From positions 1,148-65,147 of the forward strand of contig CAZWCA010000014.1 in the NCBI GenBank assembly GCA_964632255.1: a DNA stretch of 64,000 nucleotides, in the 5' to 3' direction. Positions 13,455-48,858 of this stretch are shown in pieces. The DNA is from an uncultured Smithella sp. GTDB lineage: Bacteria > Desulfobacterota > Syntrophia > Syntrophales > Smithellaceae. Both the position numbers and the translations under genes were made by a program. Numbering within the stretch: the first letter of the stretch is position 1; the number at the start of each line of letters is the position of its first letter. The notes beneath the pieces were generated by a model. That model saw only the letters and a list, made by a program, of their open reading frames with translations. It did no database searches and had not been told where the DNA came from.

Positions 13455-14390
13455 ATGAAGGTATTGGTCACTGGTGCATGCGGTTATAAGGGAACAGTCC
13501 TTGTTCCCAAGTTGCTAAATGCCGGCCATGAAGTCATTGCTCTGGATATTATGTGGTTCGGCAACTTTCTTAAACCGCATTCCAGCCTGACTGTTCTTCA
13601 ACAGGATGTCCGCAAGATCGAAGAAATTGCTTTAAATGGTATTGATGCAATTATTCATTTATCCTCCGTTGCCAATGATCCTTGCAGCGATCTTGATCCA
13701 AATCTAACGTGGGAAATAAGTGCGCTGGCGACGATGCAGCTTGCTGATAAAGCCGTAAAGTGCGGCGTCAAACATTTTATTTATGCTTCGTCCGGAAGTG
13801 TTTACGGTGTTAAAGAAGAGCCGAAAGTGACTGAAGATTTAACGCTGAAGCCAATTTCCGTATATAACAAAACTAAAATGATCGCAGAGCGTGTTTTGTT
13901 GAGCTATGCAAATGATATGATTGTTCAGATTGTTCGGCCTGCTACCGTGTGCGGTTTTTCGCCGCGCATGCGACTTGACGTTTCCGTAAACATGCTCACC
14001 ATGCAAGCTTTGAGTAATAATAAAATCACGGTATTTGGAGGCAATCAGGTTCGTCCGAACATTCACATTGAAGACATCACCGATCTTTATGTCTTTCTAC
14101 TTGATCATCCCGATATCAGCGGTATCTTTAATGCCGGGTTTGAAAACATATCAATTCTCGACATTGCCAGGATAGTGACACATTATGTTCCAGCCGAAAT
14201 TATCGTGACTGAGTCTAACGATCCAAGATCTTACAGAGTTAACTCAGATAAACTCTTGGAAACCGGCTTTTATCCCAAAAGAACAGTCGAAGAAGCCATT
14301 ATGGAAATTATTGAAAAATATAATACCGGTGAATTGAAAGATGAAGATTGCTGCTATAATTTGAAATGGATGCAAAAATTCATTATCTAA
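13455..14390 (+). CDS. NAD-dependent sugar epimerase/dehydratase family protein (extended SDR)
   Basis: Rossmann motif VTGACGYKG and YNKTK (YxxxK). AAGGGAG RBS. Confidence 0.8.
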   Translation: MKVLVTGACGYKGTVLVPKLLNAGHEVIALDIMWFGNFLKPHSSLTVLQQDVRKIEEIALNGIDAIIHLSSVANDPCSDLDPNLTWEISALATMQLADKAVKCGVKHFIYASSGSVYGVKEEPKVTEDLTLKPISVYNKTKMIAERVLLSYANDMIVQIVRPATVCGFSPRMRLDVSVNMLTMQALSNNKITVFGGNQVRPNIHIEDITDLYVFLLDHPDISGIFNAGFENISILDIARIVTHYVPAEIIVTESNDPRSYRVNSDKLLETGFYPKRTVEEAIMEIIEKYNTGELKDEDCCYNLKWMQKFII

Positions 14391-14986
14391 TGAACGATCA
14401 ATTAAATTTAAGGCTGAATCACTTCGATGAATATGCTGCAAAACTGCAGTCTATTCTGGTAAATTTTGAGTGGACTGGTGTTAAGGAATTGGCTGTCGCT
14501 TTGAAGTCCTGCTGGGAGGAAGACCGTGGTGTGATGATTTGCGGGAATGGCGGCAGCGCTGCAAATGCCATTCATCTGGCCAATGATTTCCTTTATGGTG
14601 TTTCCGGGTCGCAGAAACCGGGACTTCGTGCAGTAGCACTTTCGGCCAATCCGTCGGTGATGACTTGTCTGGCTAACGATGAAGGATATGAAAATATTTT
14701 TTCTCTTCAACTAGCGGTTCATGGCCGTCCCCGGGACATTCTAATTGTTTTGTCCGGCAGCGGCAACTCACCCAATATTATCCATGTACTTGAACAGGCA
14801 CAGGCACAGGGAATCAGAAGCTTCGCAATCCTTGGTTATACCGGCGGAGTAGCGAAAAAGATGGCCGACGTCCCGATCCATTTTCCTATTGATGATATGC
14901 AAATCAGCGAAGATCTCCAACTCGTTGTCGGACACATGATTATGCAATTTCTTAAAACACCGGTGAAAAAAAATGACAAAATGTGA
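14390..14986 (+). CDS. gmhA: SIS-domain sugar-phosphate isomerase (GmhA-like phosphoheptose isomerase)
   Basis: CGNGGSAANAIHLANDF and SGSGNSPN motifs. The start was taken at the TAATG overlap (14390), not at the track start 14366. Confidence 0.7.
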   Translation: MNDQLNLRLNHFDEYAAKLQSILVNFEWTGVKELAVALKSCWEEDRGVMICGNGGSAANAIHLANDFLYGVSGSQKPGLRAVALSANPSVMTCLANDEGYENIFSLQLAVHGRPRDILIVLSGSGNSPNIIHVLEQAQAQGIRSFAILGYTGGVAKKMADVPIHFPIDDMQISEDLQLVVGHMIMQFLKTPVKKNDKM

Positions 14987-15968
14987 ATTCCTGGTTATTG
15001 GAAGTAATTCCTTTTCCGGTGCCACATTTATTTCTTATCTGCTGGAGAAAGGACATAATATTTGCGGCATAAGCAGATCTTCGGAGGCTGATACCTGTTT
15101 TCTACCGTATAAATGGTTTGATAGCACTGATCGATTTAAATTTTTTCAGTCTGACCTCAATCATGATTTTGAGAAGATAATGGACATTGTTGACACGGAG
15201 AGGCCCGACTATATTGTTAACTTTGCCGCTCAAAGCATGGTTGGCGAAAGCTGGAAAAATCCGGATCACTGGTTTATGACCAATACTGTATCCTGCGTCC
15301 GATTGCATAATCGTCTCCGGCAAAGGAATTTTTTAAAGAAGTATGTACATGTAACAACACCGGAAGTTTATGGAAGCACCAATGGTTTCATCACTGAGGA
15401 TGCACCGTTTTATCCAAGCACCCCGTATGCAGTATCCCGTGCCGCCTCCGATATGAGCCTCCGTACCTTCTTCGAAGCTTATAACTTTCCCGTTGTCTTT
15501 ACCCGTGCAGCCAATGTCTACGGTCCGGGGCAGCAGCTTTACCGGATTATTCCCCGTACCATTCTGTTCATTATGCTGAGGAAGAAGATACAGCTTCATG
15601 GCGGCGGCCATTCCCGACGATCTTTTATTCACATGCGCGATGTTTCAGAAGCCACTTACCGTATCGCCGTTAACGGAAATCCTGGTGAGACTTATCACAT
15701 TTCCACAAATGAGATTGTATCCATTCGCCATCTGGTAGAGCAAATCTGCCGAAAAATGAACGTTGATTTCAATGACCATGTCGAAATCGTTGATGACCGA
15801 TTGGGCAAGGATGCCGCCTATATGCTTGACAGCAGCAAATTACGGAATGCTTTGGGTTGGCAGGATAAAATTGCTCTTGATCCCGGCATTGATGATTGCA
15901 TTACCTGGGTAAAAGCAAATTTTCAGGCACTCAAATCACAGCCATTTGATTACATTCACAAGCCGTGA
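14973..15968 (+). CDS. extended SDR, nucleotide-sugar 4,6-dehydratase-like fold with atypical active-site residues
   Basis: VIGSNSFSGA Rossmann motif. TPEVYG stands where dehydratases have TDEVYG. PYAVSRAASD stands where they have PYSASKAASD. Confidence 0.7.
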   Translation: MTKCEFLVIGSNSFSGATFISYLLEKGHNICGISRSSEADTCFLPYKWFDSTDRFKFFQSDLNHDFEKIMDIVDTERPDYIVNFAAQSMVGESWKNPDHWFMTNTVSCVRLHNRLRQRNFLKKYVHVTTPEVYGSTNGFITEDAPFYPSTPYAVSRAASDMSLRTFFEAYNFPVVFTRAANVYGPGQQLYRIIPRTILFIMLRKKIQLHGGGHSRRSFIHMRDVSEATYRIAVNGNPGETYHISTNEIVSIRHLVEQICRKMNVDFNDHVEIVDDRLGKDAAYMLDSSKLRNALGWQDKIALDPGIDDCITWVKANFQALKSQPFDYIHKP

Positions 15969-15980
15969 TCAATATTAATC

Positions 15981-16814
15981 ATGAAACAAACATATCGCAT
16001 AAACGATCTTGAACAACGTGCCCGCATTCTTCGCGCCAGAATTATTGAAAATGCGCATCGGACGGAAACTCCACATCTTGGATCATGCCTTTCTTGTCTC
16101 GATATTCTTGTAGCCGCATACTTTGCAGTCTTAAACATTGATCCTGAATCGCCTCGCAGCCCGGAGCGCGACCGGTTTATTTTGAGTAAAGGGCACGGTG
16201 CACCGGCATTATTTCATGTATTGGCTATGCGTGGTTTTTTCCCGGAAGCTATGCTTGATTCCTATGGCGAGGACGGCGGTTTATTTGCCGAGCATCCGCC
16301 GACCCCTGATCGTCTGCCCGGCATCGAAGCTGCTACAGGCTCTCTCGGACACGGCTTGCCGATAGGACTGGGAATGGCTCTGGCGGCGCGGATGCAAAAA
16401 CGGAATTATCCTGTTCGTGTTTTACTCAGCGATGGCGAATGTAACGAGGGGGCGGTTTGGGAGGCGGCAATGCTTGCCGCTTCTCAAAAAATGGAAAATT
16501 TAATGGTCATCATTGATTTTAATAAATGGCAGGCAACGGGCCGCAGTGAAGAAGTTATGATGCTTTCTCCTCTAATTGAAAAATGGCGCGCCTTCGGTTG
16601 GAGCGCATATGAAATTGACGGACACGATATGTGCCTGTTAACTGATTTAATGGGCCGTTTGCCTGACGGTACAGGTAAACCTGTGGCTATTATCGCCCAT
16701 ACAATCAAAGGCAAAGGCGTTTCTTTCATGGAAGATGACAACAACTGGCATTATCGTATTCCTACCGCTAATGAAGTGCGTAAAGCCAGGATCGAACTTG
16801 GAATATGCGAATGA
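15981..16814 (+). CDS. transketolase, N-terminal (TPP-binding) subunit
   Basis: HLGSCLSCLDIL, SKGHGAPALF, GSLGHGLPIGLGMA and SDGECNEG motifs. Confidence 0.85.
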   Translation: MKQTYRINDLEQRARILRARIIENAHRTETPHLGSCLSCLDILVAAYFAVLNIDPESPRSPERDRFILSKGHGAPALFHVLAMRGFFPEAMLDSYGEDGGLFAEHPPTPDRLPGIEAATGSLGHGLPIGLGMALAARMQKRNYPVRVLLSDGECNEGAVWEAAMLAASQKMENLMVIIDFNKWQATGRSEEVMMLSPLIEKWRAFGWSAYEIDGHDMCLLTDLMGRLPDGTGKPVAIIAHTIKGKGVSFMEDDNNWHYRIPTANEVRKARIELGICE

Positions 16815-17737
16815 GAAATGCATTTGCTGATGAGATAACACAAATCGGCGCCCGAAAAGAGGAGGTTGTGCTTCTATCGGGAGATATAGGAAATAAGCTA
16901 TTCGATAATTTCAAGCAAACCCGCCAAAATAGATTTTTCAACTGTGGTGTTGCAGAAGCCAATATGGTGGGAGTTGCAACGGGGATGGCGCTTTCCGGAT
17001 TGAGGCCGGTTATTTACACTATTACTCCGTTTACTACCACCCGCTGTTATGAGCAAATACGGGTGGACATTTGTTATCACGGTGCGCCGGTTATAATCGT
17101 CGGCACCGGATCAGGCCTATCCTATGCCGAGCTTGGTCCTACACACCATTCCTGTGAGGATTTGGCAATTCTTCGTGTTCTTCCCGGAATGACCGTACTG
17201 GCTCCATGTGACAGTACTGAACTACGTCTATTATTGCGGGAATCGTTTGATCAGGAAGGCCCTGTCTATATTCGAATTGGGAAAAAAGGTGAACCCGTTA
17301 TTCATTTAGAAAATTCGCCGACGGTCAAAATTGGCCGGGCGACCCGGCTTCGTGAAGGCAACGATATTTGCCTTCTTGCTGCCGGCACAGTAATGATTGA
17401 AGCTCTGAAGGCAGCAGACATCCTGGCTGCACAGGGTATCTCAACACGCATCGAAAGTTTTCACACAATTAAACCGCTTGATGAAGAACGTCTTTTTGAT
17501 GCTTTTGCCAATTTCCCTATAGTTGGCGTCTGTGAAGAGCACAGTCAGATAGGGGGATTAGCCGGCAGTATCGCGGAATGGCGTATCCGACAAAAAGGAG
17601 AACTCGCAAATATGATTGGATTCGGCGTACCCGATGAATTTATGCATGAAGTGGGAAGCCAGTCTTATGCCCGTAAAAAATACGGCTTTGATGCACAAAG
17701 CATTGCAAAACAGTTAGCGGCGGCGCTGCACTTTTAA
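16805..17737 (+). CDS. transketolase, C-terminal (pyrimidine-binding) subunit
   Basis: FFNCGVAEANMVGVATGMA and GPTHHSCEDLAILRVLPGM. It overlaps the N-subunit gene. Confidence 0.85.
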   Translation: MRMRNAFADEITQIGARKEEVVLLSGDIGNKLFDNFKQTRQNRFFNCGVAEANMVGVATGMALSGLRPVIYTITPFTTTRCYEQIRVDICYHGAPVIIVGTGSGLSYAELGPTHHSCEDLAILRVLPGMTVLAPCDSTELRLLLRESFDQEGPVYIRIGKKGEPVIHLENSPTVKIGRATRLREGNDICLLAAGTVMIEALKAADILAAQGISTRIESFHTIKPLDEERLFDAFANFPIVGVCEEHSQIGGLAGSIAEWRIRQKGELANMIGFGVPDEFMHEVGSQSYARKKYGFDAQSIAKQLAAALHF

Positions 17738-17742
17738 ACCAT

Positions 17743-18360
17743 ATGCACATTGGTATCGATTTTGACAATACAATCATCAATTATGACGGCGTATTTCATC
17801 GAGTAGCCTTGGAGCGGAAAGTTGTGCCTCTAACAATCGAACCAACCAAACTTGCCGTACGCGACTGGCTGAGATCAATGGATAAGGAAGAGATCTGGAC
17901 AGAAATGCAGGGATATGTTTATGGAGCCCGAATGGCCGACGCCGAAGTTTATCCAGGTGTATATGAATTTCTTCGGTGGGCGAGATCGGAGCGAATTTGT
18001 ATTTCTATCATAAGTCAAAAAACAAAGAAACCTTTTCGCGGTCCAGGCTACGATTTACATAAGTCGGCGCAAATGTGGATAGAAGAAAATCTTCAAGATG
18101 AAACAGGGCCACTGGTTGCTTTGAAAAGTGTTTACCTTGAAACCACTAAAGAGAAAAAATGGACGAGGATTGCTTCAACTGCCGCGACCCACTTTATTGA
18201 TGATCTTCCTGAAATATTAATCGCGGACGCTTTCCCTGCAACTGCCCAGCGTATTCTTTTTGATCCTGAACATCACCACAGCGCGGTTGAAAATTCTTTG
18301 ATTACCATGCATAATTGGATTGACATTCTTCATTATTTTAATGGACACAACATCGGTTGA
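17743..18360 (+). CDS. HAD-superfamily hydrolase (sugar-phosphate phosphatase candidate)
   Basis: N-terminal DxDxT motif (IGIDFDNTI). Confidence 0.6.
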   Translation: MHIGIDFDNTIINYDGVFHRVALERKVVPLTIEPTKLAVRDWLRSMDKEEIWTEMQGYVYGARMADAEVYPGVYEFLRWARSERICISIISQKTKKPFRGPGYDLHKSAQMWIEENLQDETGPLVALKSVYLETTKEKKWTRIASTAATHFIDDLPEILIADAFPATAQRILFDPEHHHSAVENSLITMHNWIDILHYFNGHNIG

Positions 18361-19405
18361 TTTTGGCAAAGATAAGGATTTTTCAGTGCTGTTGCAGGCT
18401 GCAGGCGAACAGACTGAAAGTGTATCAGTCATTCCACGGAGTGGAGGCGGAAACAACCGTGTTTTTGTCATTCAGGCAAATAGCCGCCGGTATATAGCTA
18501 AACAATATTTTGTTCATCCATCCGATAAGCGTGATCGCCTGCAAGCCGAATACAAATTTCTTGAATATGCTCGTTGCCTTGGTTTGCGGTGTGTACCCGA
18601 ACCATTAGCCCATATTTTAAAAAACCATATAGGACTTTACGAATTTATCGAGGGCAGGCCTATTCAAGCTTATGAATTAGCGCCCCGTCATATTGAGGAA
18701 GCAATAAACTTTTTTTTGAGCTTAAACAGTCCGGCTCGTTTTGGAATGAAGGATGTTTTACCGGATGCTTCCGAAGCGTGCTTTAGCATAAGCAATCAAA
18801 TCGCGATGGTTCGGCAGAGAATTGCCCGCCTTTCAAACATTATACCGACAACACCGATTGATAAGGCAGTCTTTGAGTTTGTCAATCATCTAAAACGTGT
18901 TTTTGAAAAAACAGCCATTGATGTCATTGAGGCTTCGGTTAGCTCAGGCATGAATGTCGATGAAGTTCTCGCACTGGAGTACCGCTGCATCTCCCCGTCG
19001 GATTTCGGTTTTCATAATGCCCTGCTGGGAGGGGATAATAAAGTTTACTTTCTTGACTTTGAATATGCCGGCTGGGATGACCCTGCTAAAATGGCATGTG
19101 ATTTCTTTTGTCATCCCGCTGTACCGGTTGATATAAAATATTTCGATAATTTTTTGCAGAAAGTTATGTCCTTTTCCTCGAATCCTGCTCTTCTTATCAA
19201 CAGGGCTTTAATTACCCTGCCCCTGTATCGAATTAAGTGGTGCTGTATAATATTAAATGAATTTCTTCCTGAATCGGCGAGGCGCCGTCGTTTTGCCGAT
19301 CCGGACACCGATCCGGAGGAGCGTAAACTTATTCAGTTGGACAAAGCATATACTATGTTGAACAAATTTTTTCCGTTGGGAGTTCATACTAATGGCTTAC
19401 ATTGA
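18341..19405 (+). CDS. aminoglycoside/choline-kinase-fold phosphotransferase
   Basis: FGFHNALLGGDNKVYFLDFEYAGWDDP (Brenner and DFE motifs of the APH fold). The start is uncertain (18320 or 18341). Confidence 0.7.
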   Translation: MDTTSVDFGKDKDFSVLLQAAGEQTESVSVIPRSGGGNNRVFVIQANSRRYIAKQYFVHPSDKRDRLQAEYKFLEYARCLGLRCVPEPLAHILKNHIGLYEFIEGRPIQAYELAPRHIEEAINFFLSLNSPARFGMKDVLPDASEACFSISNQIAMVRQRIARLSNIIPTTPIDKAVFEFVNHLKRVFEKTAIDVIEASVSSGMNVDEVLALEYRCISPSDFGFHNALLGGDNKVYFLDFEYAGWDDPAKMACDFFCHPAVPVDIKYFDNFLQKVMSFSSNPALLINRALITLPLYRIKWCCIILNEFLPESARRRRFADPDTDPEERKLIQLDKAYTMLNKFFPLGVHTNGLH

Positions 19406-20063
19406 TTTTCTTTCCACTGTGCATAAAAGCACCAGGCGTGATTATCTTGCCCGTGTCAATGACCCGGATTATCCCAAACCAAAGGCTGCTGAATTGGCCA
19501 AAAAATGGGACTTTGATTACTGGGACGGAGACCGCAGAATTTGTTTTGGAGGTTACCACTATATACCAGGGCGCTGGACTCCGGTTGCCCGGGCGATGAT
19601 CGATCATTACAACGTTAAGCCCGGCGATAAAATTCTGGATATTGGCTGCGGCAAAGGATTCCTGCTTTATGAAATGTCACTGCTGGTTCCCGGAATCGAA
19701 ATATTCGGCATAGATATATCCCGCTATGCAATTGACAATGCAAAGGAGGAAATCAGGGATCGCCTGAAAGCTGCAAATGCCAATGACTTGCCTTTTCCCG
19801 ATAATTATTTTGATTTAACTTATTCGATTACAACACTGCATAATTTGCATAATTACGATCTTGATCGCGCTCTTCGTGAAATGGAAAGAGTTGGAAAAGA
19901 AAATAAATATCTTTGTGTGGAGTCCTATCGCAACGAAACGGAAAAAGCGAATCTCTTATATTGGCAAGTGACATGTGAAGCATTCTGCACGCCGGACGAG
20001 TGGAACTGGTGGTTCAAACAAACCGGCTACACCGGCGATCATTCATTTATCTATTTTGAGTAA
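19392..20063 (+). CDS. class I SAM-dependent methyltransferase
   Basis: Motif I ILDIGCGKGFLL. 14-nt overlap with the kinase gene. Confidence 0.8.
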   Translation: MAYIDFLSTVHKSTRRDYLARVNDPDYPKPKAAELAKKWDFDYWDGDRRICFGGYHYIPGRWTPVARAMIDHYNVKPGDKILDIGCGKGFLLYEMSLLVPGIEIFGIDISRYAIDNAKEEIRDRLKAANANDLPFPDNYFDLTYSITTLHNLHNYDLDRALREMERVGKENKYLCVESYRNETEKANLLYWQVTCEAFCTPDEWNWWFKQTGYTGDHSFIYFE

Positions 20064-20070
20064 AGGAATT

Positions 20071-21123: not shown

Positions 21124-21144
21124 ATTTTATTCATAAAAATTATC

Positions 21145-22362: not shown

Positions 22363-22888
22363 ACGGTTAAATAATGAAGTTTTTGTTGTTGATAGCCCCA
22401 TTGTTTTCTTGGGTGAAGAAGAAATAAACTTTTTAACACAAAAAGCAATGCAAAACCTGCGAAGACGATCAAGAATATGTGCACACAGAACGTCTGATGA
22501 TCCTCTGCACGAGATGATTATAGTAATTGCTTCAGACAGCTATATACGTCCTCATAAACATCTTGCTAAGTCCGAATCATTTCACATTATTGAAGGTCTG
22601 GTTGATATTATTATCTTTGACAATGATGGTTCGATTACAGACGTAATTTCGCTGGGTAACCGGGAATCCGGTCTGAATTTTTACTATCGTCTGTCAGACA
22701 GCAGGTTTCATACGATGCTTATTCATACGGATATCCTTGTTATTCATGAAGTAACAAATGGGCCCTTTGATAAAGCAAAAACGAAATTAGCATCTTTTGC
22801 ACCATCAGAAGAAAATAAAATAGCTGTAAGTGATTACATGGAACATCTTTTAAAAGAAGTGGCTATATTTAAGGCTATGAAACAATGA
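22349..22888 (+). CDS. WbuC-family cupin-fold protein
   Basis: RRSRICAHRTSDDPLHEMIIVIASDSYIRPHKH is characteristic of WbuC-type cupins found in O-antigen loci. Confidence 0.7.
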   Translation: MLEIKRLNNEVFVVDSPIVFLGEEEINFLTQKAMQNLRRRSRICAHRTSDDPLHEMIIVIASDSYIRPHKHLAKSESFHIIEGLVDIIIFDNDGSITDVISLGNRESGLNFYYRLSDSRFHTMLIHTDILVIHEVTNGPFDKAKTKLASFAPSEENKIAVSDYMEHLLKEVAIFKAMKQ

Positions 22889-29173: not shown

Positions 29174-29175
29174 CT

Positions 29176-35996: not shown

Positions 35997-36010
35997 AAAA
36001 TCATTATTGT

Positions 36011-37396: not shown

Positions 37397-37505
37397 CTCT
37401 GCACATTTGTTATCAATTTAGGCAAATTTCACTGAACATAACATCCGCTGTTCCGGGCAATATCATATTCAAACCGGCAAGAAAAGTTCTCGGGAGTTTT
37501 TTGAA

Positions 37506-38369: not shown

Positions 38370-38379
38370 AAAGAAATAC

Positions 38380-39465: not shown

Positions 39466-39525
39466 TGAGCTACAGCCAGTGGAAAAAGATTACTTTTCAT
39501 TCATGCAATCTTTCAAAAGAAATTT

Positions 39526-41400: not shown

Positions 41401-41412
41401 GGAGCTGCTGTA

Positions 41413-42252
41413 ATGGGCGCTGGCATAAAAACCATTCAACGGATCATGGAAATGACAGAGACAGGTTGTCTTCCTTACGGAAGTAATATCTGTGACATAG
41501 GTACTACGCAGTTGTTCGGGGCTGGTATCAATGACGCCGCGTGCTCAATGGCAGATTATTATGCTCGTCGCGCACCGAAAGGCCCGTTCCAAGCCAGGAT
41601 TACTGACGCTCAACTATCGTCCATCACTGACGGCAGTTTCTTTGGAGAATTATTGATGTTGGCAGGCTTTCGTTACACCGCATTGGATATATTTAAAGCA
41701 CCGAACACAATCCTATTTGATTTGAACAGGCATGCTCCCGGACCGAAGCTGGAAAACCATTTCGATTTGGTTATGAACTTTGGCACGACCGAGCACGTAT
41801 TCAATCAGGTTAATGCGTTCCGCACTATCCATCAGCTCGCCAAAGTGAACGGCATTATGTATCACGATTTACCTATGGCAGGTTATCTGAACCATGCTTT
41901 TTTTCGGTATGACCCGCTTTTTTTTAATATGTTAGCGCCTGAGAACAAGTATAAATTAAACAACCTAATGTTTAGCATTGGTCAGAGCCAGATAGTCCCG
42001 GATGAATTACGCTCACATGGTTTGTCAATCGAGACTATCCACGATGTTGGAATCGAGGTAATCTTTACTAAGACCCAAGATACCCCGTTTCGTCTTCCCC
42101 TGGAACAATCAACCAGCTTGGCAGTGGAACCAATGCCGGCCAATGTTATTGATAATATAAATGTCATCAATGCCGATCAAAAAAAGATTTATTCCCGGCG
42201 AAAACATCTATGGCGTATAGCTAAGTGGACCGGTTTTCTCAAATCAATTTGA
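41413..42252 (+). CDS. atypical methyltransferase-fold protein (paralogue of 34051-35193)
   Basis: ICDIGTTQL...FDLVMNFGTTEHVFNQVNAFRTIH aligns along its length with the N-domain of the 34051 ORF. Confidence 0.6.
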   Translation: MGAGIKTIQRIMEMTETGCLPYGSNICDIGTTQLFGAGINDAACSMADYYARRAPKGPFQARITDAQLSSITDGSFFGELLMLAGFRYTALDIFKAPNTILFDLNRHAPGPKLENHFDLVMNFGTTEHVFNQVNAFRTIHQLAKVNGIMYHDLPMAGYLNHAFFRYDPLFFNMLAPENKYKLNNLMFSIGQSQIVPDELRSHGLSIETIHDVGIEVIFTKTQDTPFRLPLEQSTSLAVEPMPANVIDNINVINADQKKIYSRRKHLWRIAKWTGFLKSI

Positions 42253-42274
42253 GAGATCAACTAATCGATGTGTA

Positions 42275-43549
42275 TTATAATAGCTCAGGATGTTTGCAAA
42301 GGAACAGTGATGCAATACGAGCGCGCGAGCCAAAGGAATAGTGATTCTCTTTTAATTGGGAGAGGAAGCAATTGAAGCGTTCTTTATCAGCATTTGATTC
42401 AACAAAGCTATTGTCCAAACGGTCAATCATTTCAACTGCCAGGTTACGGATATCTTCAGCGGAGTTTTCTTCGACTCTGATTTTTGCTTTCCTGTATAGC
42501 GCCGCGTAACGGTATTTGGCGAGAGATGATGAAATTACTTCGTCAAACCGGAGATAGCGATTGAGATGCTCGGACCAAAGCAGCTTCGGAATGCTGATAT
42601 CACGGATGCCATACCATAGGTCGGACATAGGAATCATATTGGCAATGGCACAAGGGATACCAAAGACAGATCCGACAAGCGCAATGCCGGATGTATTGCC
42701 GAGGATGAATTTTGCTTTTGCGCAAAGTATTATGTCCAATTGTTCTGATTTCATAGGATGGTGAGCGTAGTCAATAATTTTTGGCAATGGCGGCAATGGG
42801 GTCATGCTAGCATCGCCGATTCTGATAACCCACCCTCCACGAGCTATGATTTCCTGTATTGCAGGCATTATGTTTTCGATGCTTGCATTGCGATGAGATT
42901 GCAGCTCCTCATCAACAGGAGAAAAACCAGGTTCTCTTACATGAACGCAGACAAACCATGCACCTTCGGGCAATCCTAATTGGCGCAATGCATGTGCGCT
43001 CCATTTCTCATCCTCCTTTGTAAGGGAGAGCAGTGGCGGCCGGCCATCCCATAGTGCATTAATTTTATAGGCAGCCTGAGCCTTATTGACGGCAAGTACG
43101 TAACGAGAAATATCATAGCGCATGAAACCGAAGAGACTCATGCTCGACAAAACATAACAGGCCAAGCCGTTTTCGTAGATACGAATGAATGGTTTCCAGT
43201 AATTCAATAAATGATGATTGGCTACACGCCCTGGAGGGGCAAGAATAAACCAGCGGCATTGGGGAATAAGACCGAGCCTCTGCTCTTTGAGAAGACAATC
43301 AGGCTCAATGGCCAGATGACCAATTCGATCTGTAAATACTGTAACACGCCGGTAACCTGCCAAATGAAGAACGATTGTCAAGGGCAAGAGAAGCAGCCAT
43401 AAAAAAATGCTGATTATGTGTTTAGCCGCTTTGAAAAGCAGTATATCAAGCCTTTGCCGGTAAATGCGGCGCCATTCATAAGCGATTCCATGCCAAAAGT
43501 GAGGCCAGTTCAACAAGCGTTCGTCCTTTCCACCGATTAAATCTTTCAA
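42275..43549 (-). CDS. putative GT-B-type glycosyltransferase with an N-terminal TM segment
   Basis: It is the only minus-strand gene in the locus. The C-terminal half (ARGGWVIRIGD...LDIILCAKAKFILGNTSGIALVGSVFGIPCAIANM) resembles the donor-binding half of GT9/heptosyltransferase-like enzymes. The family assignment is tentative. Confidence 0.35.
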   Translation of the reverse strand: MKDLIGGKDERLLNWPHFWHGIAYEWRRIYRQRLDILLFKAAKHIISIFLWLLLLPLTIVLHLAGYRRVTVFTDRIGHLAIEPDCLLKEQRLGLIPQCRWFILAPPGRVANHHLLNYWKPFIRIYENGLACYVLSSMSLFGFMRYDISRYVLAVNKAQAAYKINALWDGRPPLLSLTKEDEKWSAHALRQLGLPEGAWFVCVHVREPGFSPVDEELQSHRNASIENIMPAIQEIIARGGWVIRIGDASMTPLPPLPKIIDYAHHPMKSEQLDIILCAKAKFILGNTSGIALVGSVFGIPCAIANMIPMSDLWYGIRDISIPKLLWSEHLNRYLRFDEVISSSLAKYRYAALYRKAKIRVEENSAEDIRNLAVEMIDRLDNSFVESNADKERFNCFLSQLKENHYSFGSRARIASLFLCKHPELL

Positions 43550-43799: not shown

Positions 43800-45326
43800 A
43801 TGTCGGAAAGTGAAGGAGTGAAGAATCTGGCACTCAATGAAAGTCCTTTTGAATATACAGCTCGTATTGTAAGTGAAATTAAGGCATGCGCCGGAAATGA
43901 CAAAAGGATAGTCTTTGTTTCCGGAAATTTTAATATTTTGCATCCAGGCCATCTTCGCCTTCTAAATTTTGCCGCTGAATGCGGTGATTTTCTAGTCGTT
44001 GGAGTTAATAAAGATAATACCAGTGGCACTATAGTTCCCGAATATCTTCGGCATGAAAGTGTTAAAGCTATTTCAGTAGTTAATTTTTCTTTTATAATGA
44101 AGACGGACCCGGAATATTTTATTTTAACCTTGCGTCCTCATGTTGTAGTCAAAGGCAAAGAACATGAAAATAAATATAATCCGGAAAAAGCGATAATTAA
44201 AAGCTATGGCGGCAAGCTTTTATTTAGTTCGGGAGAAGTGCGCTTTTCCTCATTAGATCTTATGCAACGGGAATTGCATGAGATAAGTCTTTCTTTTATA
44301 CGTAAACCAATTGATTACTTGGAACGGCATGAAATTAATTTTTCAAAACTTGCTTCATATGTGAAAAAATTTTCTGATCTTAAGGTCATCGTAATTGGAG
44401 ACATCATTGTTGATGAATACGTTAATTGCGATCCTCTCGGCATGTCTCGGGAAGATCCAACGCTCGTTGTCACTCCGCTTAACTGCAATCGTTATATTGG
44501 TGGAGCCGGAATTGTTTCTGCACATTCCCGCGGATTAGGGGCTAAAGTTTTATATTTTGGCGTGACCGGCGGCGATGAAACAGCGGAATTCGCCAAAAAC
44601 ACTTTAGAATCCTACGGCGTAATGACTCACCTATTTATCGACGAAAGCCGCCCAACTACATTAAAGCAACGTTATCGAGCCGGTTCTAAAACATTGCTCC
44701 GGGTAAGTCATTTGCGCCAGCATGATATCAGTCATGAATTGGAAAAACTTATATTTGAACGGTTAGCTGCGGAAATTGAGGATACTGATTTGCTCATCTT
44801 TTCCGATTTCAATTATGGCTGTTTACCGCAATCCCTGGTTAATTCCATTATTGATTGCTGTAATCAGCATAATGTCATGATGGCAGCGGACAGCCAGGCA
44901 TCTTCACAGTCCTCGGATATAACACGCTTTAAAGGAATGCATTTGATTACTCCTACCGAGTATGAAGGACGATTGTCTATTCATGATATGACATCGGGCC
45001 TCGTTGTTCTGGCGACCAATCTTCTATTGAATTCAAATGCAAAGCATATTTTCATAACTCTCGGCTCAGAAGGTGTTTTAATACATGCACCTTCTTCTAT
45101 GCAAAATCAATTAATAACCGATCAATTGCCCTCCTTCAATACTGCACCCAAGGATGTTTCAGGAGCTGGAGATTCAATGCTCACATGCGCCGCTATGGCT
45201 ATGGCGGTTGGCGCAAGCATTTGGGAAAGCGGCTATCTCGGCTCCATTGCCGCTGCCTGCCAGGTAGGAAGGATAGGAAATTTGCCACTTTCGGCAATGG
45301 ATATAATCAGGGAATTGCGACTTTGA
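43800..45326 (+). CDS. bifunctional nucleotidyltransferase (HxGH) plus PfkB sugar kinase; HldE/RfaE-like with the domain order reversed
   Basis: The N-domain has VSGNFNILHPGHLRLL...VVKGKEH. The C-domain has VIVIGDIIVDEY...GGAGIV...DVSGAGDSML (PfkB signature). Confidence 0.75.
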   Translation: MSESEGVKNLALNESPFEYTARIVSEIKACAGNDKRIVFVSGNFNILHPGHLRLLNFAAECGDFLVVGVNKDNTSGTIVPEYLRHESVKAISVVNFSFIMKTDPEYFILTLRPHVVVKGKEHENKYNPEKAIIKSYGGKLLFSSGEVRFSSLDLMQRELHEISLSFIRKPIDYLERHEINFSKLASYVKKFSDLKVIVIGDIIVDEYVNCDPLGMSREDPTLVVTPLNCNRYIGGAGIVSAHSRGLGAKVLYFGVTGGDETAEFAKNTLESYGVMTHLFIDESRPTTLKQRYRAGSKTLLRVSHLRQHDISHELEKLIFERLAAEIEDTDLLIFSDFNYGCLPQSLVNSIIDCCNQHNVMMAADSQASSQSSDITRFKGMHLITPTEYEGRLSIHDMTSGLVVLATNLLLNSNAKHIFITLGSEGVLIHAPSSMQNQLITDQLPSFNTAPKDVSGAGDSMLTCAAMAMAVGASIWESGYLGSIAAACQVGRIGNLPLSAMDIIRELRL

Positions 45327-46033
45327 GAGCACTACTGTTAGCCGCCGGCTTTGGAACCCGCCTGCGCCCGATTACCAATTCTGTTCCGAAATGCCTGGTA
45401 CCGGTCTGCGGCAGGCCTCTGTTGGACTATTGGCTTGATTTATTGTTGCCCGGCGGGATCGAACATATTCTCATCAACACCCATTATCTTTCGAATATTG
45501 TAAGAAATCATATTGACCGTTCTCCCTGGAGAAATTCAGTCGAGATCGCCTATGAAGATAGACTATTAGGTACAGGCGGTACTGTGTTGAAAAATCGCCG
45601 TTTTTTTAAAAATAAATCATTTATGGTTGCTCACGCCGATAACTTAACCAGATTTGATGTTAAAGAATTCATTGCCGCTCATGTTCAACGGCCGCGCGGA
45701 GTGGAAATAACAATGATGACTTTTGATACGGACAGGCCGCAGACATGCGGGATAGTCGAGCAGAATAACAGATACATTGTTACAGCTTTCCATGAAAAAT
45801 CATTATCAGCACCGGGAAACAGAGCAAATGCAGCAGTTTACATTTTTGAACCATCGATAATCGATTTTCTTGCAGGAATAGGACGTGAAGTAATCGACAT
45901 AAGTCTTGAAGTTCTGCCTCATTATCTGGGACGCATCCAGACATTTCATAATGGTGTCTATCATCGAGATATCGGCAACCTGGAAAGTCTGGCTTGCGCT
46001 GAGCAGGAGTTCAAACAAATCTCATTTCGGTAA
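45323..46033 (+). CDS. sugar-1-phosphate nucleotidyltransferase (HddC/ManC-like)
   Basis: LLLAAGFGTRLRPIT signature. A TTG start at 45323 overlaps the upstream TGA. The track's upstream extension lacks conservation. Confidence 0.75.
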   Translation: MRALLLAAGFGTRLRPITNSVPKCLVPVCGRPLLDYWLDLLLPGGIEHILINTHYLSNIVRNHIDRSPWRNSVEIAYEDRLLGTGGTVLKNRRFFKNKSFMVAHADNLTRFDVKEFIAAHVQRPRGVEITMMTFDTDRPQTCGIVEQNNRYIVTAFHEKSLSAPGNRANAAVYIFEPSIIDFLAGIGREVIDISLEVLPHYLGRIQTFHNGVYHRDIGNLESLACAEQEFKQISFR

Positions 46034-46061: not shown

Positions 46062-47066
46062 TTGCCTATGCCGGCTATAAATGAACGAGTCGCTGTTGCA
46101 GTAGTCAATTTCAACGGTGGAGATATGCTGCAGCATTGTCTGAAATCCATTGTCAATCAGTCATTTCCTCCATCACGCATAATAGTGATTGATAATGCAA
46201 GCACCGATGATTCGGCGGATATTGCCATACGCTCATTTCCTGATGTTGAATTTATCCTTTTGAATGAGAATATAGGTTTTGCTGCCGCAAATAATTATGC
46301 CGCGCATCTTGCAGCGGATTGCAAATGGATCGCCTTATTGAACCCGGATGCGTGCGCTGCGCCGGGCTGGCTGGAAAAAATGATTATTGCCGCCCGTACT
46401 CATCCTGAATTCAGCTTTTACGGCTCCTGCATGTATGCAAAGAATGATTTATCACGGCTTGATGGCATTGGAGATGTCTATCATGCGAGCGGTCTTGCCT
46501 GGCGTGACAGCCATGGTCGAATAGCCGGACAAAGTGCCATTGAAACAAAAGAGATATTCTCGGCATGCGCTGCAGCCGTACTTTACAGGCGCGATATATT
46601 CCTTTCCGTCGGAGGTTTGGACGAAGATTTTTTTTGTTACCTGGAGGATGTTGATTTGGGTTTCCGGTTACATTTGGCAGGACATCGCTGTTTATTAGTC
46701 GCGGATGCCGTCGTTTATCATGCAGGATCAGCCCTTGCAGGAGGAAAACATGGTAATTTTGCAGTTTATCACGGTCACCGGAATCTTGTTTGGACTTATA
46801 TAAAAAATATGCCCGGACTGCTTTTCTGGTTATTTCTTCCCCTGCATCTTATTCTTAATCTGGGAAGCATTATCTGGTTCTATTTGCGGGGCCAGGGAAC
46901 CGTCATATTGCAAGCTAAGAAGGATGCGTTACTGGGTGTCCCCCATATGTGGAAGAAGCGATGTCACATCCAGAAAAATCATACAGCTTCTACAAGTGAG
47001 ATATGGAGAGTGTTGGATAAGCGTCTATTACCTAACAGGCTTCACCTTTCAAGGATAAAATCATAA
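46062..47066 (+). CDS. GT2 family glycosyltransferase
   Basis: VAVVNFNGGDML..., DNASTDDS and LNPDA (DxD-type) motifs. There is a C-terminal hydrophobic segment. Confidence 0.8.
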   Translation: MPMPAINERVAVAVVNFNGGDMLQHCLKSIVNQSFPPSRIIVIDNASTDDSADIAIRSFPDVEFILLNENIGFAAANNYAAHLAADCKWIALLNPDACAAPGWLEKMIIAARTHPEFSFYGSCMYAKNDLSRLDGIGDVYHASGLAWRDSHGRIAGQSAIETKEIFSACAAAVLYRRDIFLSVGGLDEDFFCYLEDVDLGFRLHLAGHRCLLVADAVVYHAGSALAGGKHGNFAVYHGHRNLVWTYIKNMPGLLFWLFLPLHLILNLGSIIWFYLRGQGTVILQAKKDALLGVPHMWKKRCHIQKNHTASTSEIWRVLDKRLLPNRLHLSRIKS

Positions 47067-47113
47067 ATCCTCAGATTACTGCAATAATAGTTAACTATAA
47101 TGCCGGTCGCGCT

Positions 47114-47983
47114 TTGCTGAATGCCGTCCGTTCCGTACTGGCATCTGCATGCGTAAAGGAAATTTTTGTTATTGATAATGGATCTTCCGATTCCAGTATG
47201 AATGATTTAAAAAAATATGCAGAAAATAATTCCCGGATTACATGTATCAACAATAATAAAAATTTAGGATTCTCCAAGGCTTGCAATATCGGAGCGAGGA
47301 AAGCGGAAAGTGACTATCTCCTTTTCCTTAATCCCGACTGCATCCTTCATCCAAATTCTTTGGAAAAAATGTTAAATGTTATTAATTTACAGATTGATGT
47401 GGGAATGGCCGGTCCTTGTCTGCTGAATGAAGATGGAAGTGAGCAGGCCGGTGGAAGAAGAGCTGTACCCACGCCATGGCGTTCCCTAATGCGTACATTC
47501 GGCTTGTCATGTTTGAGTAAACGCTATCCACGTCTTTGTTCCGATTTTAATTTACACAGACAGCCTTTACCGGAATATCCTATAGAAGTGGAGGCAATTT
47601 CCGGCTCCTGTATGCTTGTTCGTTCAAAAGCGATGAGACAAGTCGGCCTTTTGGACGAAGGGTATTTTATGCATTGTGAAGATTTGGACTGGTGTATGCG
47701 CTTTCGGCAAAATGAATGGAAAATCATTTTTGTACCCTCTGCTCCCGTAATTCATTACAAAGGTTTAAGCAGTGCGGGACGTCCGATTTTTGTTGAGTGG
47801 CACAAACATAAGGGGATGGTGCGTTTTTATCGAAAATTTTTTAAAAGCCAATATCCTGTTTTAATAATGTGGCTGGTAATTATCGGTGTCTGGCTTCGGT
47901 TCAGCTTAGCAACGGTAAGTCATAGTTTTGATTTCATTAAGAATGGCGCAGCAACCCGGGAAAGAAAATGCGCGTTGGAGTAA
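47114..47983 (+). CDS. GT2 family glycosyltransferase (the conserved N-terminus extends upstream of the first canonical start)
   Basis: DNGSSDSS and LNPDC motifs. The in-frame upstream codons 47075-47113 encode ITAIIVNYNAGRA, the conserved first beta-strand, but no ATG, GTG or TTG lies in the open frame 47036-47113. Confidence 0.7.
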   Translation: MLNAVRSVLASACVKEIFVIDNGSSDSSMNDLKKYAENNSRITCINNNKNLGFSKACNIGARKAESDYLLFLNPDCILHPNSLEKMLNVINLQIDVGMAGPCLLNEDGSEQAGGRRAVPTPWRSLMRTFGLSCLSKRYPRLCSDFNLHRQPLPEYPIEVEAISGSCMLVRSKAMRQVGLLDEGYFMHCEDLDWCMRFRQNEWKIIFVPSAPVIHYKGLSSAGRPIFVEWHKHKGMVRFYRKFFKSQYPVLIMWLVIIGVWLRFSLATVSHSFDFIKNGAATRERKCALE

Positions 47984-48858
47984 TTGGAGCGACAAGTTTT
48001 ATCGGGCAATGTCTTTTACACTTACCGGCGGCTCAAAAAAATTGTAATATTGTCGCCTTTTCCCGGCGGATGCAATGTAAGCAAAGTCATCAAAAAACAG
48101 GCTCCGTTAAATGGCAACATCTTCAGAAGTCTGACTATTCTCTAATGGATTCATGCCCCGCCGAAGAGCAAATACCGGACTGGATTTGTCTGGCTCCGAT
48201 ATGGGTCCTTCCTGATTATTTTTCGATGCTTTCCTTTTACGGAGCAAACCATATAGTGGTTCTTTCTTCAACAAGCCGATTCTCAAAAAAATTATCATCC
48301 GATCCTGTAGAGCGCACATTGGCGCAAAAACTGACAAGCAGTGAAGATAAACTTGTTTCCTGGGCGAGGGCCAAAGGCGTAGCATGGACAATTCTAAGGC
48401 CGACAATGATTTACGGTCTTGGAAAAGATAAGACAATCAGTGTAATTATTAAGTTCATTCGCCGTTTTTCCTTTTTCCTTTTATATGGCAATGGTAAAGG
48501 CTTGCGGCAACCAATCCATGTAAGCGATGTTGCAACAAGTTGTTTTGCTGCTCTTAGAGAAATGAAAACCATTAATCGCTCGTACAATCTTTCCGGCGGT
48601 GAAATTCTTACTTATCATGAAATGGTCCGGCGTATTTTTTCCATACTGGACAAGTCACCGCGCTTTCTAAGATTACCTCCCTCTTTTTTCAGATTGGCCT
48701 TAAACTGTTTACGTTTGTTGCCGCGTTTTCAATACTTGTCATTTGCCATGGTTGAGAGAATGAATCAGGATCTCGTCTTTGAACATAAAGATGCCTGCCG
48801 CGATTTTAATTTTTCTCCGAGACCTTTCATCATAAATCGGGAAGATATACCGGCTTGA
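47968..48858 (+). CDS. NAD(P)-binding Rossmann (SDR-like) protein
   Basis: N-terminal VGVIGATSFIG motif. It overlaps the upstream GT2 gene. Confidence 0.6.
   Translation: MRVGVIGATSFIGQCLLHLPAAQKNCNIVAFSRRMQCKQSHQKTGSVKWQHLQKSDYSLMDSCPAEEQIPDWICLAPIWVLPDYFSMLSFYGANHIVVLSSTSRFSKKLSSDPVERTLAQKLTSSEDKLVSWARAKGVAWTILRPTMIYGLGKDKTISVIIKFIRRFSFFLLYGNGKGLRQPIHVSDVATSCFAALREMKTINRSYNLSGGEILTYHEMVRRIFSILDKSPRFLRLPPSFFRLALNCLRLLPRFQYLSFAMVERMNQDLVFEHKDACRDFNFSPRPFIINREDIPA

Follow-up and report, generated by a model that had tools for sequence, protein, structure and literature searches.

A methyltransferase-rich surface glycan locus in an uncultured Smithella sp., apparently a mosaic of three recurring gene modules

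We have analyzed a stretch of 64,000 nucleotides (the window) from an uncultured Smithella sp. of the Syntrophales, in which positions 13455–48858 hold a cell-surface glycan gene cluster that is unusually rich in methyltransferases. We lean, by a modest margin of belief, towards the view that this locus makes a multiply O- and C-methylated glycan exported by an ATP-binding cassette (ABC) transporter, likely of the lipopolysaccharide (LPS) O-antigen type, with further decoration in the periplasm. The gene order suggests a mosaic of three recurring and laterally mobile modules, which we have called S (nucleotide-sugar genes, 13455–25060 plus 43800–46033), P (34051–43549, including the exporter) and C (25199–33859, ca. 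8.7 kb, similar to the Arn and Rgt systems). These modules recur in Polynucleobacter, Sideroxydans, Marivibrio, Parvibaculum and Prosthecobacter. Genes are designated below by their first position and related loci by L numbers.

Methyltransferase content

Seven of the 32 genes of the locus (19392, 21145, 23747, 31040, 31765, 35250 and 36172) are solid S-adenosylmethionine (SAM) methyltransferases, among them two nucleoside diphosphate (NDP)-sugar C-methyltransferases of the TylC3 type (21145 and 23747) and one enzyme of the TylF type (36172). The probability of finding at least seven in 32 is 3e-6 at a background of 2%, a rate assumed within a range of 1–5%, and the enrichment (7–9 methyltransferases per 32 genes) is much greater than any realistic background rate and far beyond chance. 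A sequence-only reading of this DNA had listed nine methyltransferase open reading frames (ORFs). All nine are present, four of them with starts shifted by a few codons (23747, 31765, 35250 and 36172, taken here as the longest ORFs), and searches with profile hidden Markov models placed six above the Pfam gathering threshold (GA) in methyltransferase families (19392, 21145, 23747, 31040, 31765 and 36172). The match of 35250 is below threshold (24.3 bits), and the canonical motifs VLEIGCGDAFG and FFLDVLEHI are present in it. The remaining two, 34051 and 41413, are paralogous to each other and match Methyltransf_23 only weakly (23.9 and 24.9 bits), and their family could be aligned by hhalign to bona fide methyltransferases over 41 columns only, in the motif-IV/V region (probability 87%). 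They are best described as methyltransferase-like and divergent, unproven as methyltransferases. Each methyltransferase gene has conserved orthologues in related loci and, to judge from these, the high density has been conserved across a family of loci.

At least two of these enzymes are predicted to be NDP-sugar C-methyltransferases, i.e., to act on precursors and not on chain caps. The product of 23747 (23747–25060) is a 3-C-methyltransferase of the TylC3/TcaB9/KijD1 type, homologous to these enzymes over its full length (PDB 4rv9, E 2e-72), with the N-terminal Zn-ribbon domain (PF08421), the class I SAM domain and Methyltransf_14 (PF08484, 125.7 bits) all recognized by Pfam. A more divergent relative, 21145 (21145–22362), has the same three-domain architecture (Methyltransf_13, Methyltransf_23 and Methyltransf_14) and a distant match to TylC3 (4rv9, E 3e-17, residues 3–385). 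A gene for a 4,6-dehydratase (14973) belongs to the same module as both.

Enzymes of the TylF and TylC3 types, together with RmlD-like and AsnB proteins, are also typical of antibiotic deoxysugar pathways, and a cluster for a glycosylated natural product was considered. For 23747 and 36172, the nearest homologues with a solved structure belong to macrolide and tetronate pathways, and the epimerase-like 32840 matches MoeE5 (6kv9); enzymes similar to MoeE5 and AsnB are known from the biosynthesis of moenomycin. However, no polyketide synthase, non-ribosomal peptide synthetase, terpene or aglycone genes were detected by Pfam among the ORFs of the locus, Wzm/Wzt, ArnC-like, GmhA-like and HldE-like genes are present, and one related locus (L088) lies in an LPS region. 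We regard this origin as extremely improbable, and the absence of aglycone genes led us to reject it.

Nucleotide-sugar genes

The genes of module S would provide the complete set of activities of a higher-carbon nucleotide-sugar pathway. They begin with a short-chain dehydrogenase/reductase (SDR) of the epimerase/dehydratase family (13455–14390; PF01370, 122.7 bits), which is kept beside the isomerase and the dehydratase in L085 (78% identity) and in L107/L108 (68–74%). Next comes a GmhA-like SIS ketose-phosphate isomerase (14366–14986; PF13580, 81.8 bits) that scores 121.7 bits against TIGR00441 (gmhA), below the cut-off of 209.45, so that it is related to GmhA without reaching GmhA identity. 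It is followed by an RmlB-like NDP-sugar 4,6-dehydratase (14973–15968; PF16363, 173 bits; TIGR01181, 210 bits; PDB 2hun/6bi4 at full length, E 1e-43) and by a transketolase split into an N-terminal, thiamine diphosphate (ThDP)-binding subunit (15981–16814; PF00456, 109.8 bits; NF004559, 250 bits; with the variant ThDP motif SDGE...N) and a C-terminal, pyrimidine-binding subunit (16805–17737; PF02779 and PF02780; NF004559, 200.9 bits). The next gene codes for a candidate haloacid dehalogenase (HAD)-like phosphatase (17743–18360), with an N-terminal DFDNT (DxDxT) motif and weak HAD matches in Pfam (E 0.007), and is kept between transketolase and kinase in L081, L082, L085 and L097. The kinase itself (18320–19405; PF01636, 38 bits) has the fold of aminoglycoside phosphotransferase (APH) and choline kinases, with an intact catalytic D..N loop (SDFGFHN) and Mg motif (IDFEY); a PDB sequence search found no relative at E≤0.1. 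Translationally coupled to it is the class I SAM methyltransferase 19392 (19392–20063; Methyltransf_31/11, PF13847 77.1 bits and PF08241 70.6 bits), whose orthologues in L085, L097 and L100 are 72–84% identical, and then an oxidoreductase of the Zn-dependent alcohol dehydrogenase (ADH) family (19975–21123; PF00107 and PF08240; 67–74% identity to orthologues in related loci).

Between the two C-methyltransferase genes lie a WbuC-family cupin, a candidate sugar epimerase/isomerase (22349–22888; TIGR04366, 133.2 bits over a cut-off of 42), and an RmlD-like NDP-4-ketosugar reductase (22885–23811; PF04321, 88.2 bits; TIGR01214, 76 bits, below threshold). The module resumes after module P with a bifunctional enzyme (43800–45326) in which the nucleotidyltransferase domain (PF01467, residues 40–121) precedes the PfkB kinase domain (PF00294, residues 195–493). 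Since this order is the reverse of that in HldE, and since both scores are below the cut-off (rfaE_dom_I, 190 vs. 345 bits; rfaE_dom_II, 68.6 vs. 181.5 bits), we refer to it as HldE-like and not as HldE. The last gene codes for a short sugar-1-phosphate nucleotidyltransferase (45185–46033; PF00483, 121.7 bits), with its true start probably near 45320.

We propose that the split transketolase and the GmhA-like isomerase would supply a higher-carbon sugar phosphate of the heptose type, to be activated by the kinases, the HAD phosphatase and the nucleotidyltransferases. The RmlB-like dehydratase would then give a 4-keto-6-deoxy intermediate that the two TylC3-type enzymes would C-methylate, and the WbuC cupin (by epimerization) and the RmlD-like enzyme (by 4-ketoreduction) would complete the nucleotide sugar. 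The product would be a C-methyl-branched 6-deoxy sugar of the heptose or hexose type.

Chain synthesis and export

Module P opens with the divergent methyltransferase-like gene 34051 (34051–35193; below the GA), whose orthologue in Polynucleobacter is 64% identical; PDB sequence searches gave no match for it nor for 39526. It is followed by the methyltransferase 35250 (35250–35996) and the TylF-family sugar O-methyltransferase 36172 (36172–37209; PF05711, 158.8 bits vs. a GA of 23). The former is among the best conserved genes of the system, with 57–78% identity in 14 of 16 related GTDB loci. The C-terminal ca. 50 residues of 34051 (35050–35190) are homologous to the N-terminal region of the TylF protein (36172–36400), and in L088 (14191–16230) a 34051-like and a TylF domain are fused as one protein of 679 amino acids, so that the two proteins probably act as a pair. 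The paralogue 41413 (41413–42252; assigned by Methyltransf_23 and the family alignment) is located further downstream.

A protein without Pfam domains, of 415–429 amino acids, adjoins the TylF gene in L081, L082, L084, L087, L088 and L092 (e.g., L087 6687–7976) and is not found in the window. It is ca. 50–52% identical between the more distant loci and 98% identical between L081 and L087, and is another uncharacterized component of module P. Radical SAM/SPASM genes, likewise not in the window, were seen beside TylF in L087 (3922–5631) and beside a distant relative of 25199 in L094 (6355–7410), and may represent another, radical route of methylation or modification in related loci.

The largest protein of module P has 624 amino acids (39526–41400) and consists of an N-terminal GT-A-like domain, a helical linker, a C-terminal domain with a class I methyltransferase-like fold and one C-terminal transmembrane (TM) helix. 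It has no match in Pfam, and all of its homologues, at least 464, are named hypothetical. The AlphaFold2 model is of good quality (pLDDT 85.5), and Foldseek matched it to SpsA and XylT1 (both GT-A) and to many methyltransferases. The GT-A domain is highly conserved, with invariant DD, NADF and DSD motifs. The sequence-only reading had taken the centre of this ORF as a possible tenth methyltransferase. The model does place a class I methyltransferase-like Rossmann fold in the protein, in its C-terminal third (residues ca. 430–610), and across 32 homologues this part has no conserved residues, those for SAM binding included. A tenth active enzyme is thus not supported, given that there is the fold alone and that such folds can belong to glycosyltransferases, as in GT137 (PMC11231755).

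The next gene, the only one of the locus on the minus strand (42275–43549), codes for a putative glycosyltransferase of family TIGR04372 (201.8 bits over a cut-off of 45), present in eight of the 16 related loci. A literature search on TIGR04372, on the O-antigen of Polynucleobacter and on transketolase with C-methyltransferase in O-antigen clusters found nothing relevant. Three genes at the 3' end of the locus have no counterpart in any of the related loci examined and appear specific to this strain. Two are GT2 glycosyltransferases (46062–47066, PF00535 75.3 bits; 47057–47983, PF00535 76.6 bits) and the third is an SDR-like protein (47968–48858) with a weak and partial Epimerase match (PF01370, 46.4 bits, residues 125–208 only). 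The second GT2 gene has no ATG, GTG or TTG 5' of its first beta-strand, and an in-frame KIINPQITAIIVNYN overlaps with the stop codon of the GT2 gene before it. The N-terminal strand found in frame upstream of the first TTG (47057–47114) suggests an ATT/ATA start or translational coupling, and the idea of a pseudogene starting at 47114 was rejected on this ground. With the ArnC-like GT2 of module C (28229) and the GT-A domain of 39526, this makes five glycosyltransferases, and 25199 is a candidate sixth; the three or four previously recognized were an undercount.

The exporter genes lie together within module P. Wzm is an ABC-2 permease with ca. six TM segments (37506–38369; PF01061, 42 bits; NF050109, 183 bits, below threshold) and Wzt is the ATPase (38305–39465; PF00005, 67 bits; NF050108, 239 bits over residues 29–263), which confirms the export genes named earlier. 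The best NCBIfam models of both are the Wzm/RfbD and Wzt/RfbE galactan exporters, below the equivalog cut-offs. Wzt carries a helical C-terminal extension of ca. 120 amino acids in which no match to Wzt_C and no recognizable carbohydrate-binding module (CBM) was found. This extension is not conserved, the orthologues in L087 and L085 consisting of the nucleotide-binding domain only. Neither a coiled-coil terminator at the locus nor a long coiled coil in the 39526 model could be found. If it belongs to any known subclass, such a system fits the terminator-less one of the O2a type, described among ABC-dependent systems by the Whitfield laboratory (PMC11231755), which the locus resembles. With a CBM-less Wzt and no terminator, methylation along the chain, and not of a cap only, is plausible and the simpler reading.

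The opposite possibility is that of an ordinary ABC-dependent O-antigen, with most methyltransferases devoted to termination, i.e., capping with methyl or methyl-phosphate as by WbdD, and with 18320 and 19392 as a split kinase-methyltransferase terminator. These two genes overlap and are always adjacent, and in Klebsiella O3 and O7 there are methyl-phosphate terminators whose kinase has an APH-like fold (PMC11231755). However, there is neither a coiled-coil ruler nor a CBM in Wzt, and no similarity of the kinase to WbdD or to any PDB kinase could be detected. In addition, 18320 and 19392 are separate soluble proteins encoded inside the nucleotide-sugar module, between the HAD phosphatase and the ADH, and capping cannot explain seven or more methyltransferases, two of them NDP-sugar C-methyltransferases. 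We therefore consider capping very unlikely as the main role of these enzymes.

In the preferred reading, the chain would be built on a polyprenyl carrier in the cytoplasm by the 624-aa GT-A protein, the TIGR04372 enzyme and the two strain-specific GT2s, O-methylated by TylF, 35250 and probably 34051/41413, and exported by the CBM-less Wzm/Wzt. As the sequence-only reading had noted, there is no Wzx, Wzy, Wzz or WecA/WbaP; neither these (Glycos_transf_4 and Bac_transf included) nor WaaL had a Pfam match or a candidate in the 64-kb window, where the only polytopic ORFs are 25199, wzm and one Fe-S protein. The lack of WecA, Wzx, Wzy and Wzz is not anomalous, since it is the normal state of ABC-dependent loci.

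An accessory module with a large membrane protein

The sequence-only reading treated the locus as one unit and missed module C, which contains two of its nine methyltransferases. The first gene of this module (25199–28174) codes for a polytopic membrane protein of 991 amino acids, a candidate transferase dependent on polyprenyl-phosphate sugars. From the hydropathy of the alignment and the positive-inside rule, its topology is an inside N-terminus, 11 TM helices, a first outer loop of 73 amino acids and a periplasmic C-terminal domain of ca. 520 amino acids, with perfect alternation of loops rich and poor in K/R. The first outer loop holds the most conserved motif of the family, with a near-invariant Asp (D46), and further conserved motifs (IPTxNEYSQL and LPxQYSxC) are in the periplasmic domain. 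Five close relatives were found among 5.8 billion proteins, together with at least 1,266 distant representatives at 50% clustering. An identical 968-aa product of 25199 was found on nine contigs from several sequencing runs, and contigs with this protein reach 124 kb. Among GTDB genomes, a scan with the single sequence gave nothing, and one with the alignment gave only Marivibrio, at 24% identity.

Next to it is an ArnC/GtrB-like polyprenyl-phosphate glycosyltransferase of family GT2 (28229–29173), which matches ArnC (9hwj, E 7e-53) and GtrB (5ekp, E 6e-43) at full length and has C-terminal TM helices (hydrophobic segments at 256–294). In all loci with module C, the 25199-family protein has such a GT2 within one gene of it. 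The pair of an ArnC-like GT2 and a polytopic membrane protein implies a periplasmic, polyprenyl-phosphate-dependent glycosylation. By analogy of gene context and topology, the latter being compatible with GT-C, 25199 would be the transferase. The module continues with an AsnB-type glutamine amidotransferase, a candidate for uronic-acid amidation (29170–31038; TIGR01536, 470.9 bits over a cut-off of 267; PF00733 and GATase_7), which accounts, with five SDRs, for the amidotransferase and the several SDRs reported before. The best score of this protein was to the XrtA/PEP-CTERM amidotransferase model, below its cut-off (512 vs. 817 bits). Two class I SAM methyltransferases follow, 31040 (31040–31786; PF08241, 74.7 bits), which adjoins AsnB in L081, L084, L086 and L092, and 31765 (31765–32730; PF08241, 69.7 bits), with an N-terminal extension and orthologues at 50–51% in L082 and L092. 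The last gene codes for a UDP-glucuronate (GlcA) 4-epimerase-like SDR (32840–33859; PDB 5u4q, E 8e-147), with further matches to the Bacillus cereus UDP-GlcA 4-epimerase (6zl6, E 6e-51) and MoeE5 (6kv9, E 1e-32).

We propose that UDP-GlcA is epimerized by 32840, then probably amidated by AsnB and methylated by 31040 and 31765. The ArnC-like GT2 would load the resulting residue, of the (methylated) galacturonamide type, onto polyprenyl phosphate and, after flipping, the 991-aa protein would transfer it in the periplasm, with either the exported glycan or the lipid A-core as acceptor.

A different product would be a glycan not linked to LPS, i.e., a capsule or exopolysaccharide, a glycan attached to an S-layer or to protein, or a methylated free glycolipid, with the 991-aa protein transferring chains en bloc as an oligosaccharyltransferase or ligase. 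The absence of WaaL from the window, a PEP-CTERM/exosortase-type secreted protein nearby and the fact that the best whole-length structural alignment of 25199, a non-significant one, is to the archaeal oligosaccharyltransferase AglB would fit such a product. Against it, the pairing of 25199 with an ArnC-like synthase of monosaccharide-phosphoprenol argues for a polyprenyl-phosphate monosaccharide as donor, most loci with modules S and P have no member of the 25199 family, and the L088 copy of the module has waaA, a GT9 heptosyltransferase and rml genes as neighbors. We judge this alternative quite unlikely, and the LPS O-antigen type of product is retained.

Mosaic structure and lateral exchange

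Comparison with other loci was based on the neighborhoods of 39526 homologues in GTDB, 16 loci from 16 species including Sideroxydans, Burkholderiales, Nitrosomonadales, Parvibaculum, Inquilinaceae and Prosthecobacter, to which we added those in Polynucleobacter paneuropaeus (L087) and a betaproteobacterium (L088). Contigs with close homologues of 25199, and Marivibrio halodurans (L086), have long syntenic runs in common with the window. The core around the 39526 homologues consists of the 35250-like methyltransferase and the HldE-like enzyme (14/16 loci each) and the nucleotidyltransferase (13/16). Less constant are the 34051/41413 family (8/16), TylF (6/16) and the set of C-methyltransferase, cupin and RmlD-like reductase (5–8/16). 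Modules S and P are mixed in L100, L103, L107, L108 and L110, and in Sideroxydans (L097) module S runs straight into module P (35250-39526-HldE) with no module C between. In P. paneuropaeus, module P comes with wzm/wzt (32–76% identity over ten genes), and in L088 its neighbors, waaA, the GT9 heptosyltransferase and rml genes, are those of a typical LPS region.

None of the 16 loci contains module C. It forms one block in three Polynucleobacter-like contigs, L081, L084 and L092 (a neighboring protein in L081 is 98% identical to one of P. paneuropaeus), and likewise in L082 and Marivibrio (L086). Its absence from the 16 loci, its block-wise presence elsewhere and its omission in Sideroxydans mark it as an insertable accessory. 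The same observations would suit two adjacent and independent systems, with S and P making an ABC-exported polymer and C, in the manner of Arn or Rgt, modifying lipid A or the inner core with a uronic acid (methylated, amidated), the more so as the enzymes of module C (UDP-GlcA 4-epimerase-like, ArnC-like and polytopic protein) parallel LpsL/RgtE/RgtA-F and ArnA-T (PMC7663294). On the other side, module C is always placed between the C-methyltransferase genes of module S and the genes of module P and was never seen alone. Relatives of 21145 occur in every locus carrying the 25199 family, and even relatives of 25199 with 21–27% identity adjoin genes for C-methyltransferase, GT2 and AsnB. That such distant relatives keep C-methyltransferase neighbors points to a link in function with the C-methyl sugar pathway, and we find full independence of the two systems improbable.

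The proteins 19392, 23747, 35250 and 13455 are 72–84% identical to those of betaproteobacterial loci (for the first three, L097 of Sideroxydans, L100 of Burkholderiales and L087 of Polynucleobacter). This identity across phyla is as high as that of the flanking PilT within the Syntrophaceae, indicating that the glycan modules were probably transferred laterally. The swapped-domain HldE-like enzyme, the short nucleotidyltransferase, the 39526-type GT-A protein and the 35250-type methyltransferase form a quartet that appears to be a widespread and laterally mobile system, found in Thermodesulfobacteriota, Beta- and Alphaproteobacteria and Verrucomicrobiota, and often extended by the transketolase-fed branch for a doubly C-methylated deoxy-higher sugar. 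We suggest, tentatively and with more doubt than belief, two things jointly: that the 25199 family is a new class of glycosyltransferases dependent on polyprenyl-phosphate sugars, and that the quartet system makes a permethylated surface glycan of the heptose or octose type. By analogy, members of the 25199 family may be periplasm-facing transferases, GT-C-like or of a new fold, that partner ArnC-like synthases and recur by sugar C-methyltransferases.

Several observations weigh against a single ABC-exported glycan with periplasmic decoration. The first group concerns 25199. This protein and 46 relatives have no match in Pfam, NCBIfam or PDB, and no similarity in sequence to a GT-C family could be detected; likewise, a Pfam search of ten TM domains at E≤10 and a PDB profile search recovered no GT-C or other family for them. 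The AlphaFold2 model, made from an alignment of six sequences, is unreliable (pLDDT 46.6), Foldseek gave no match at E≤0.001, and its whole-length alignments are non-significant (AglB, E 0.012; DPY19, E 0.24). No flippase of the GtrA or ArnE/F type was detected in the window, where no ORF of 70–260 amino acids has three or more hydrophobic segments. The methyltransferase-like 34051 and 41413 do not have the glycine-rich SAM loop, motif I being D-[VI]-G-[ST]-[ST] and not GxGxG. In module S, no role could be assigned to the transketolase, the Zn-ADH, the APH-like kinase or the methyltransferase 19392, and it is not explained why a nucleotidyltransferase of its own should be needed beside the HldE-like enzyme. 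As for export, only three of the 16 GTDB loci have wzm/wzt at 10 kb or less from the 39526 homologue (they are also present in L087 and L085), and the module-P glycan may not always be exported by Wzm/Wzt. WecA, WaaL and Ugd are not in the 64-kb window, so that attachment to LPS is putative.

If the proposal is true, a mobile set of genes for hydrophobic surface glycans with many O- and C-methyl groups is common to environmental Gram-negative bacteria, among them Polynucleobacter, which is abundant in fresh water, and such glycans could affect recognition by phages and grazers. The locus also gives a handle, through gene context, on a polytopic membrane family of more than 1,200 members, a GT-A family of more than 460 and a divergent methyltransferase-like family, with M. 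halodurans (CGMCC 1.15697) and P. paneuropaeus as cultured carriers.

Genomic setting

Of the 32 ORFs 31 are on the plus strand, in agreement with the nearly unidirectional arrangement described before, and the coding density is ca. 97%, with frequent overlaps of stop and start codons. The locus is bounded by an AT-rich gap of 1.4 kb on the 5' side and by a gap of 0.7 kb on the 3' side, and the flanking genes on both sides are unrelated to glycan synthesis. A 65-aa double-zinc-ribbon ORF on the minus strand (12440–12637) stands alone inside the upstream gap. A promoter and terminator scan of this 1.4-kb leader gave a signal no higher than in shuffled sequence, and the RfaH ops element GGCGGTAG was searched for and is absent.

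The left end of the window (1–9245, minus strand) is a prophage or integrative-element remnant with genes for a Mu GpP-like baseplate protein (1396–2514), a DnaB-like helicase (4181–5515), a Phg_2220_C protein (5512–6288) and a tyrosine integrase (7944–9245), all on that strand, and is followed by Fe-S/DUF362 genes (9486–12017). The other flanking genes code for an M24 peptidase, a stand-alone methyltransferase, a PEP-CTERM protein, a transglutaminase-like protein, two PilT ATPases and tRNA-Ala with an integrase. The methyltransferase (50869–51606, minus strand) is a strong class I member (Methyltransf_25, 70.7 bits), located 2 kb outside the locus and past the M24 peptidase, and nothing ties it to the glycan system. 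The PEP-CTERM gene (52186–52905) encodes a secreted protein of family DUF4114 whose PEP-CTERM sorting tail implies an exosortase system in the organism. At 59394–64000 a tRNA-Ala(CGC) is followed directly by a P4-type integrase (Arm-DNA-bind_3, Phage_int_M and Phage_integrase), and the GC content falls to 0.35 at 62–64 kb; together these resemble the start, at the right edge of the window, of a genomic island targeted to the tRNA gene. The flanking PilT is 83% identical to a protein from a Syntrophaceae metagenome-assembled genome. A Coxiella-like O-antigen region, an origin prompted by the C-methyltransferases, wzm/wzt and a GC content of ca. 43%, was ruled out by these Syntrophales-like flanks and by the Fe-S/DUF362 genes.

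Comparison with known systems

The export logic is that of the standard ABC-dependent O-antigens. Like those of Escherichia coli O8/O9a and Klebsiella O2a/O3/O4/O7/O12, the locus is unidirectional and combines Wzm/Wzt and cytoplasmic glycosyltransferases with no Wzx, Wzy or Wzz; in those systems the priming enzyme is encoded elsewhere, and here none is in the window. It differs in having neither a coiled-coil terminator nor a CBM in Wzt, in its 7–9 methyltransferases instead of one, and in that its main glycosyltransferase candidates (the 39526 family and TIGR04372) belong to uncharacterized families. Methylation at several positions has a precedent in Rhizobium etli CE3, whose Wzm/Wzt-exported O-antigen carries a tri-O-methylfucose cap, 3-O-methyl-6-deoxytalose and methyl-esterified GlcA and comes with several wre methyltransferases. 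The multiple O-methylation of an ABC-exported O-antigen by several methyltransferase genes would thus be common to both, whereas R. etli is not known to have C-methyltransferases or an Arn-like module there.

For module S the parallels are the GDP-heptose (GmhA-HddA-GmhB-HddC) and lincosamide GDP-octose (LmbR-N-P-K-O) pathways, which employ a former of C-C bonds, an SIS isomerase, a kinase, a HAD phosphatase and a nucleotidyltransferase. The set of activities followed by SDR tailoring is the same, but in module S a transketolase takes the place of the transaldolase and an APH-fold and/or PfkB kinase that of the GHMP kinase.

A periplasmic add-on to an ABC-exported O-antigen is made by gmlABC in Klebsiella. 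With this system and with ArnC/ArnT, RgtE/RgtA-F and GtrB/Gtr*, module C has in common a full-length ArnC/GtrB homologue and, next to it, a large polytopic protein that has a periplasmic domain. This membrane partner shows no similarity in sequence to the ArnT, Rgt, Gtr, YfhO or PMT families, and the module differs from these systems in having no flippase gene and in the addition of AsnB and two methyltransferases. The UDP-GlcA 4-epimerase-like SDR is shared with LpsL/RgtE, where RgtE acts with RgtA-F, RgtD/F among them, through bactoprenyl-phosphate-galacturonic acid (GalA) and periplasmic transfer of GalA to LPS (PMC7663294).

The nearest precedent for the C-methylation is Coxiella burnetii, in which an ABC-dependent locus contains wzm/wzt (CBU0703/0704) and a TylCIII-like gene (CBU0691, for virenose), and the O-antigen, with virenose and dihydrohydroxystreptose, has C-methyl-branched 6-deoxy sugars as chain constituents (PMC3204966, PMC3539893). 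A TylC3-type NDP-sugar 3-C-methyltransferase in an ABC-dependent locus is therefore common to both, and the suggestion in the sequence-only reading of a glycan kind not described for this architecture is overstated. Its proposal of a heavily methylated polymer fares better; the density is real, the C-methyltransferases act, by prediction, on precursors, and there is neither a Wzt CBM nor a terminator. The locus differs from that of Coxiella in its two C-methyltransferases together with 5–7 genes of the O-methyltransferase type, in the branch with transketolase, GmhA-like and HldE-like enzymes, in the Arn-like module and in its unrelated host. With the export logic and both kinds of methylation already known, what is new is the number of methylation functions and the way they are combined, a sugar branch that would be fed by transketolase and C-methylated twice and is tied to an HldE-like enzyme with swapped domains, and three uncharacterized protein families in conserved context. 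The ABC-dependent paradigm is not overturned by this locus; rather, it is extended by a branch of C-methylation at the precursor level and by an Arn-like periplasmic add-on.

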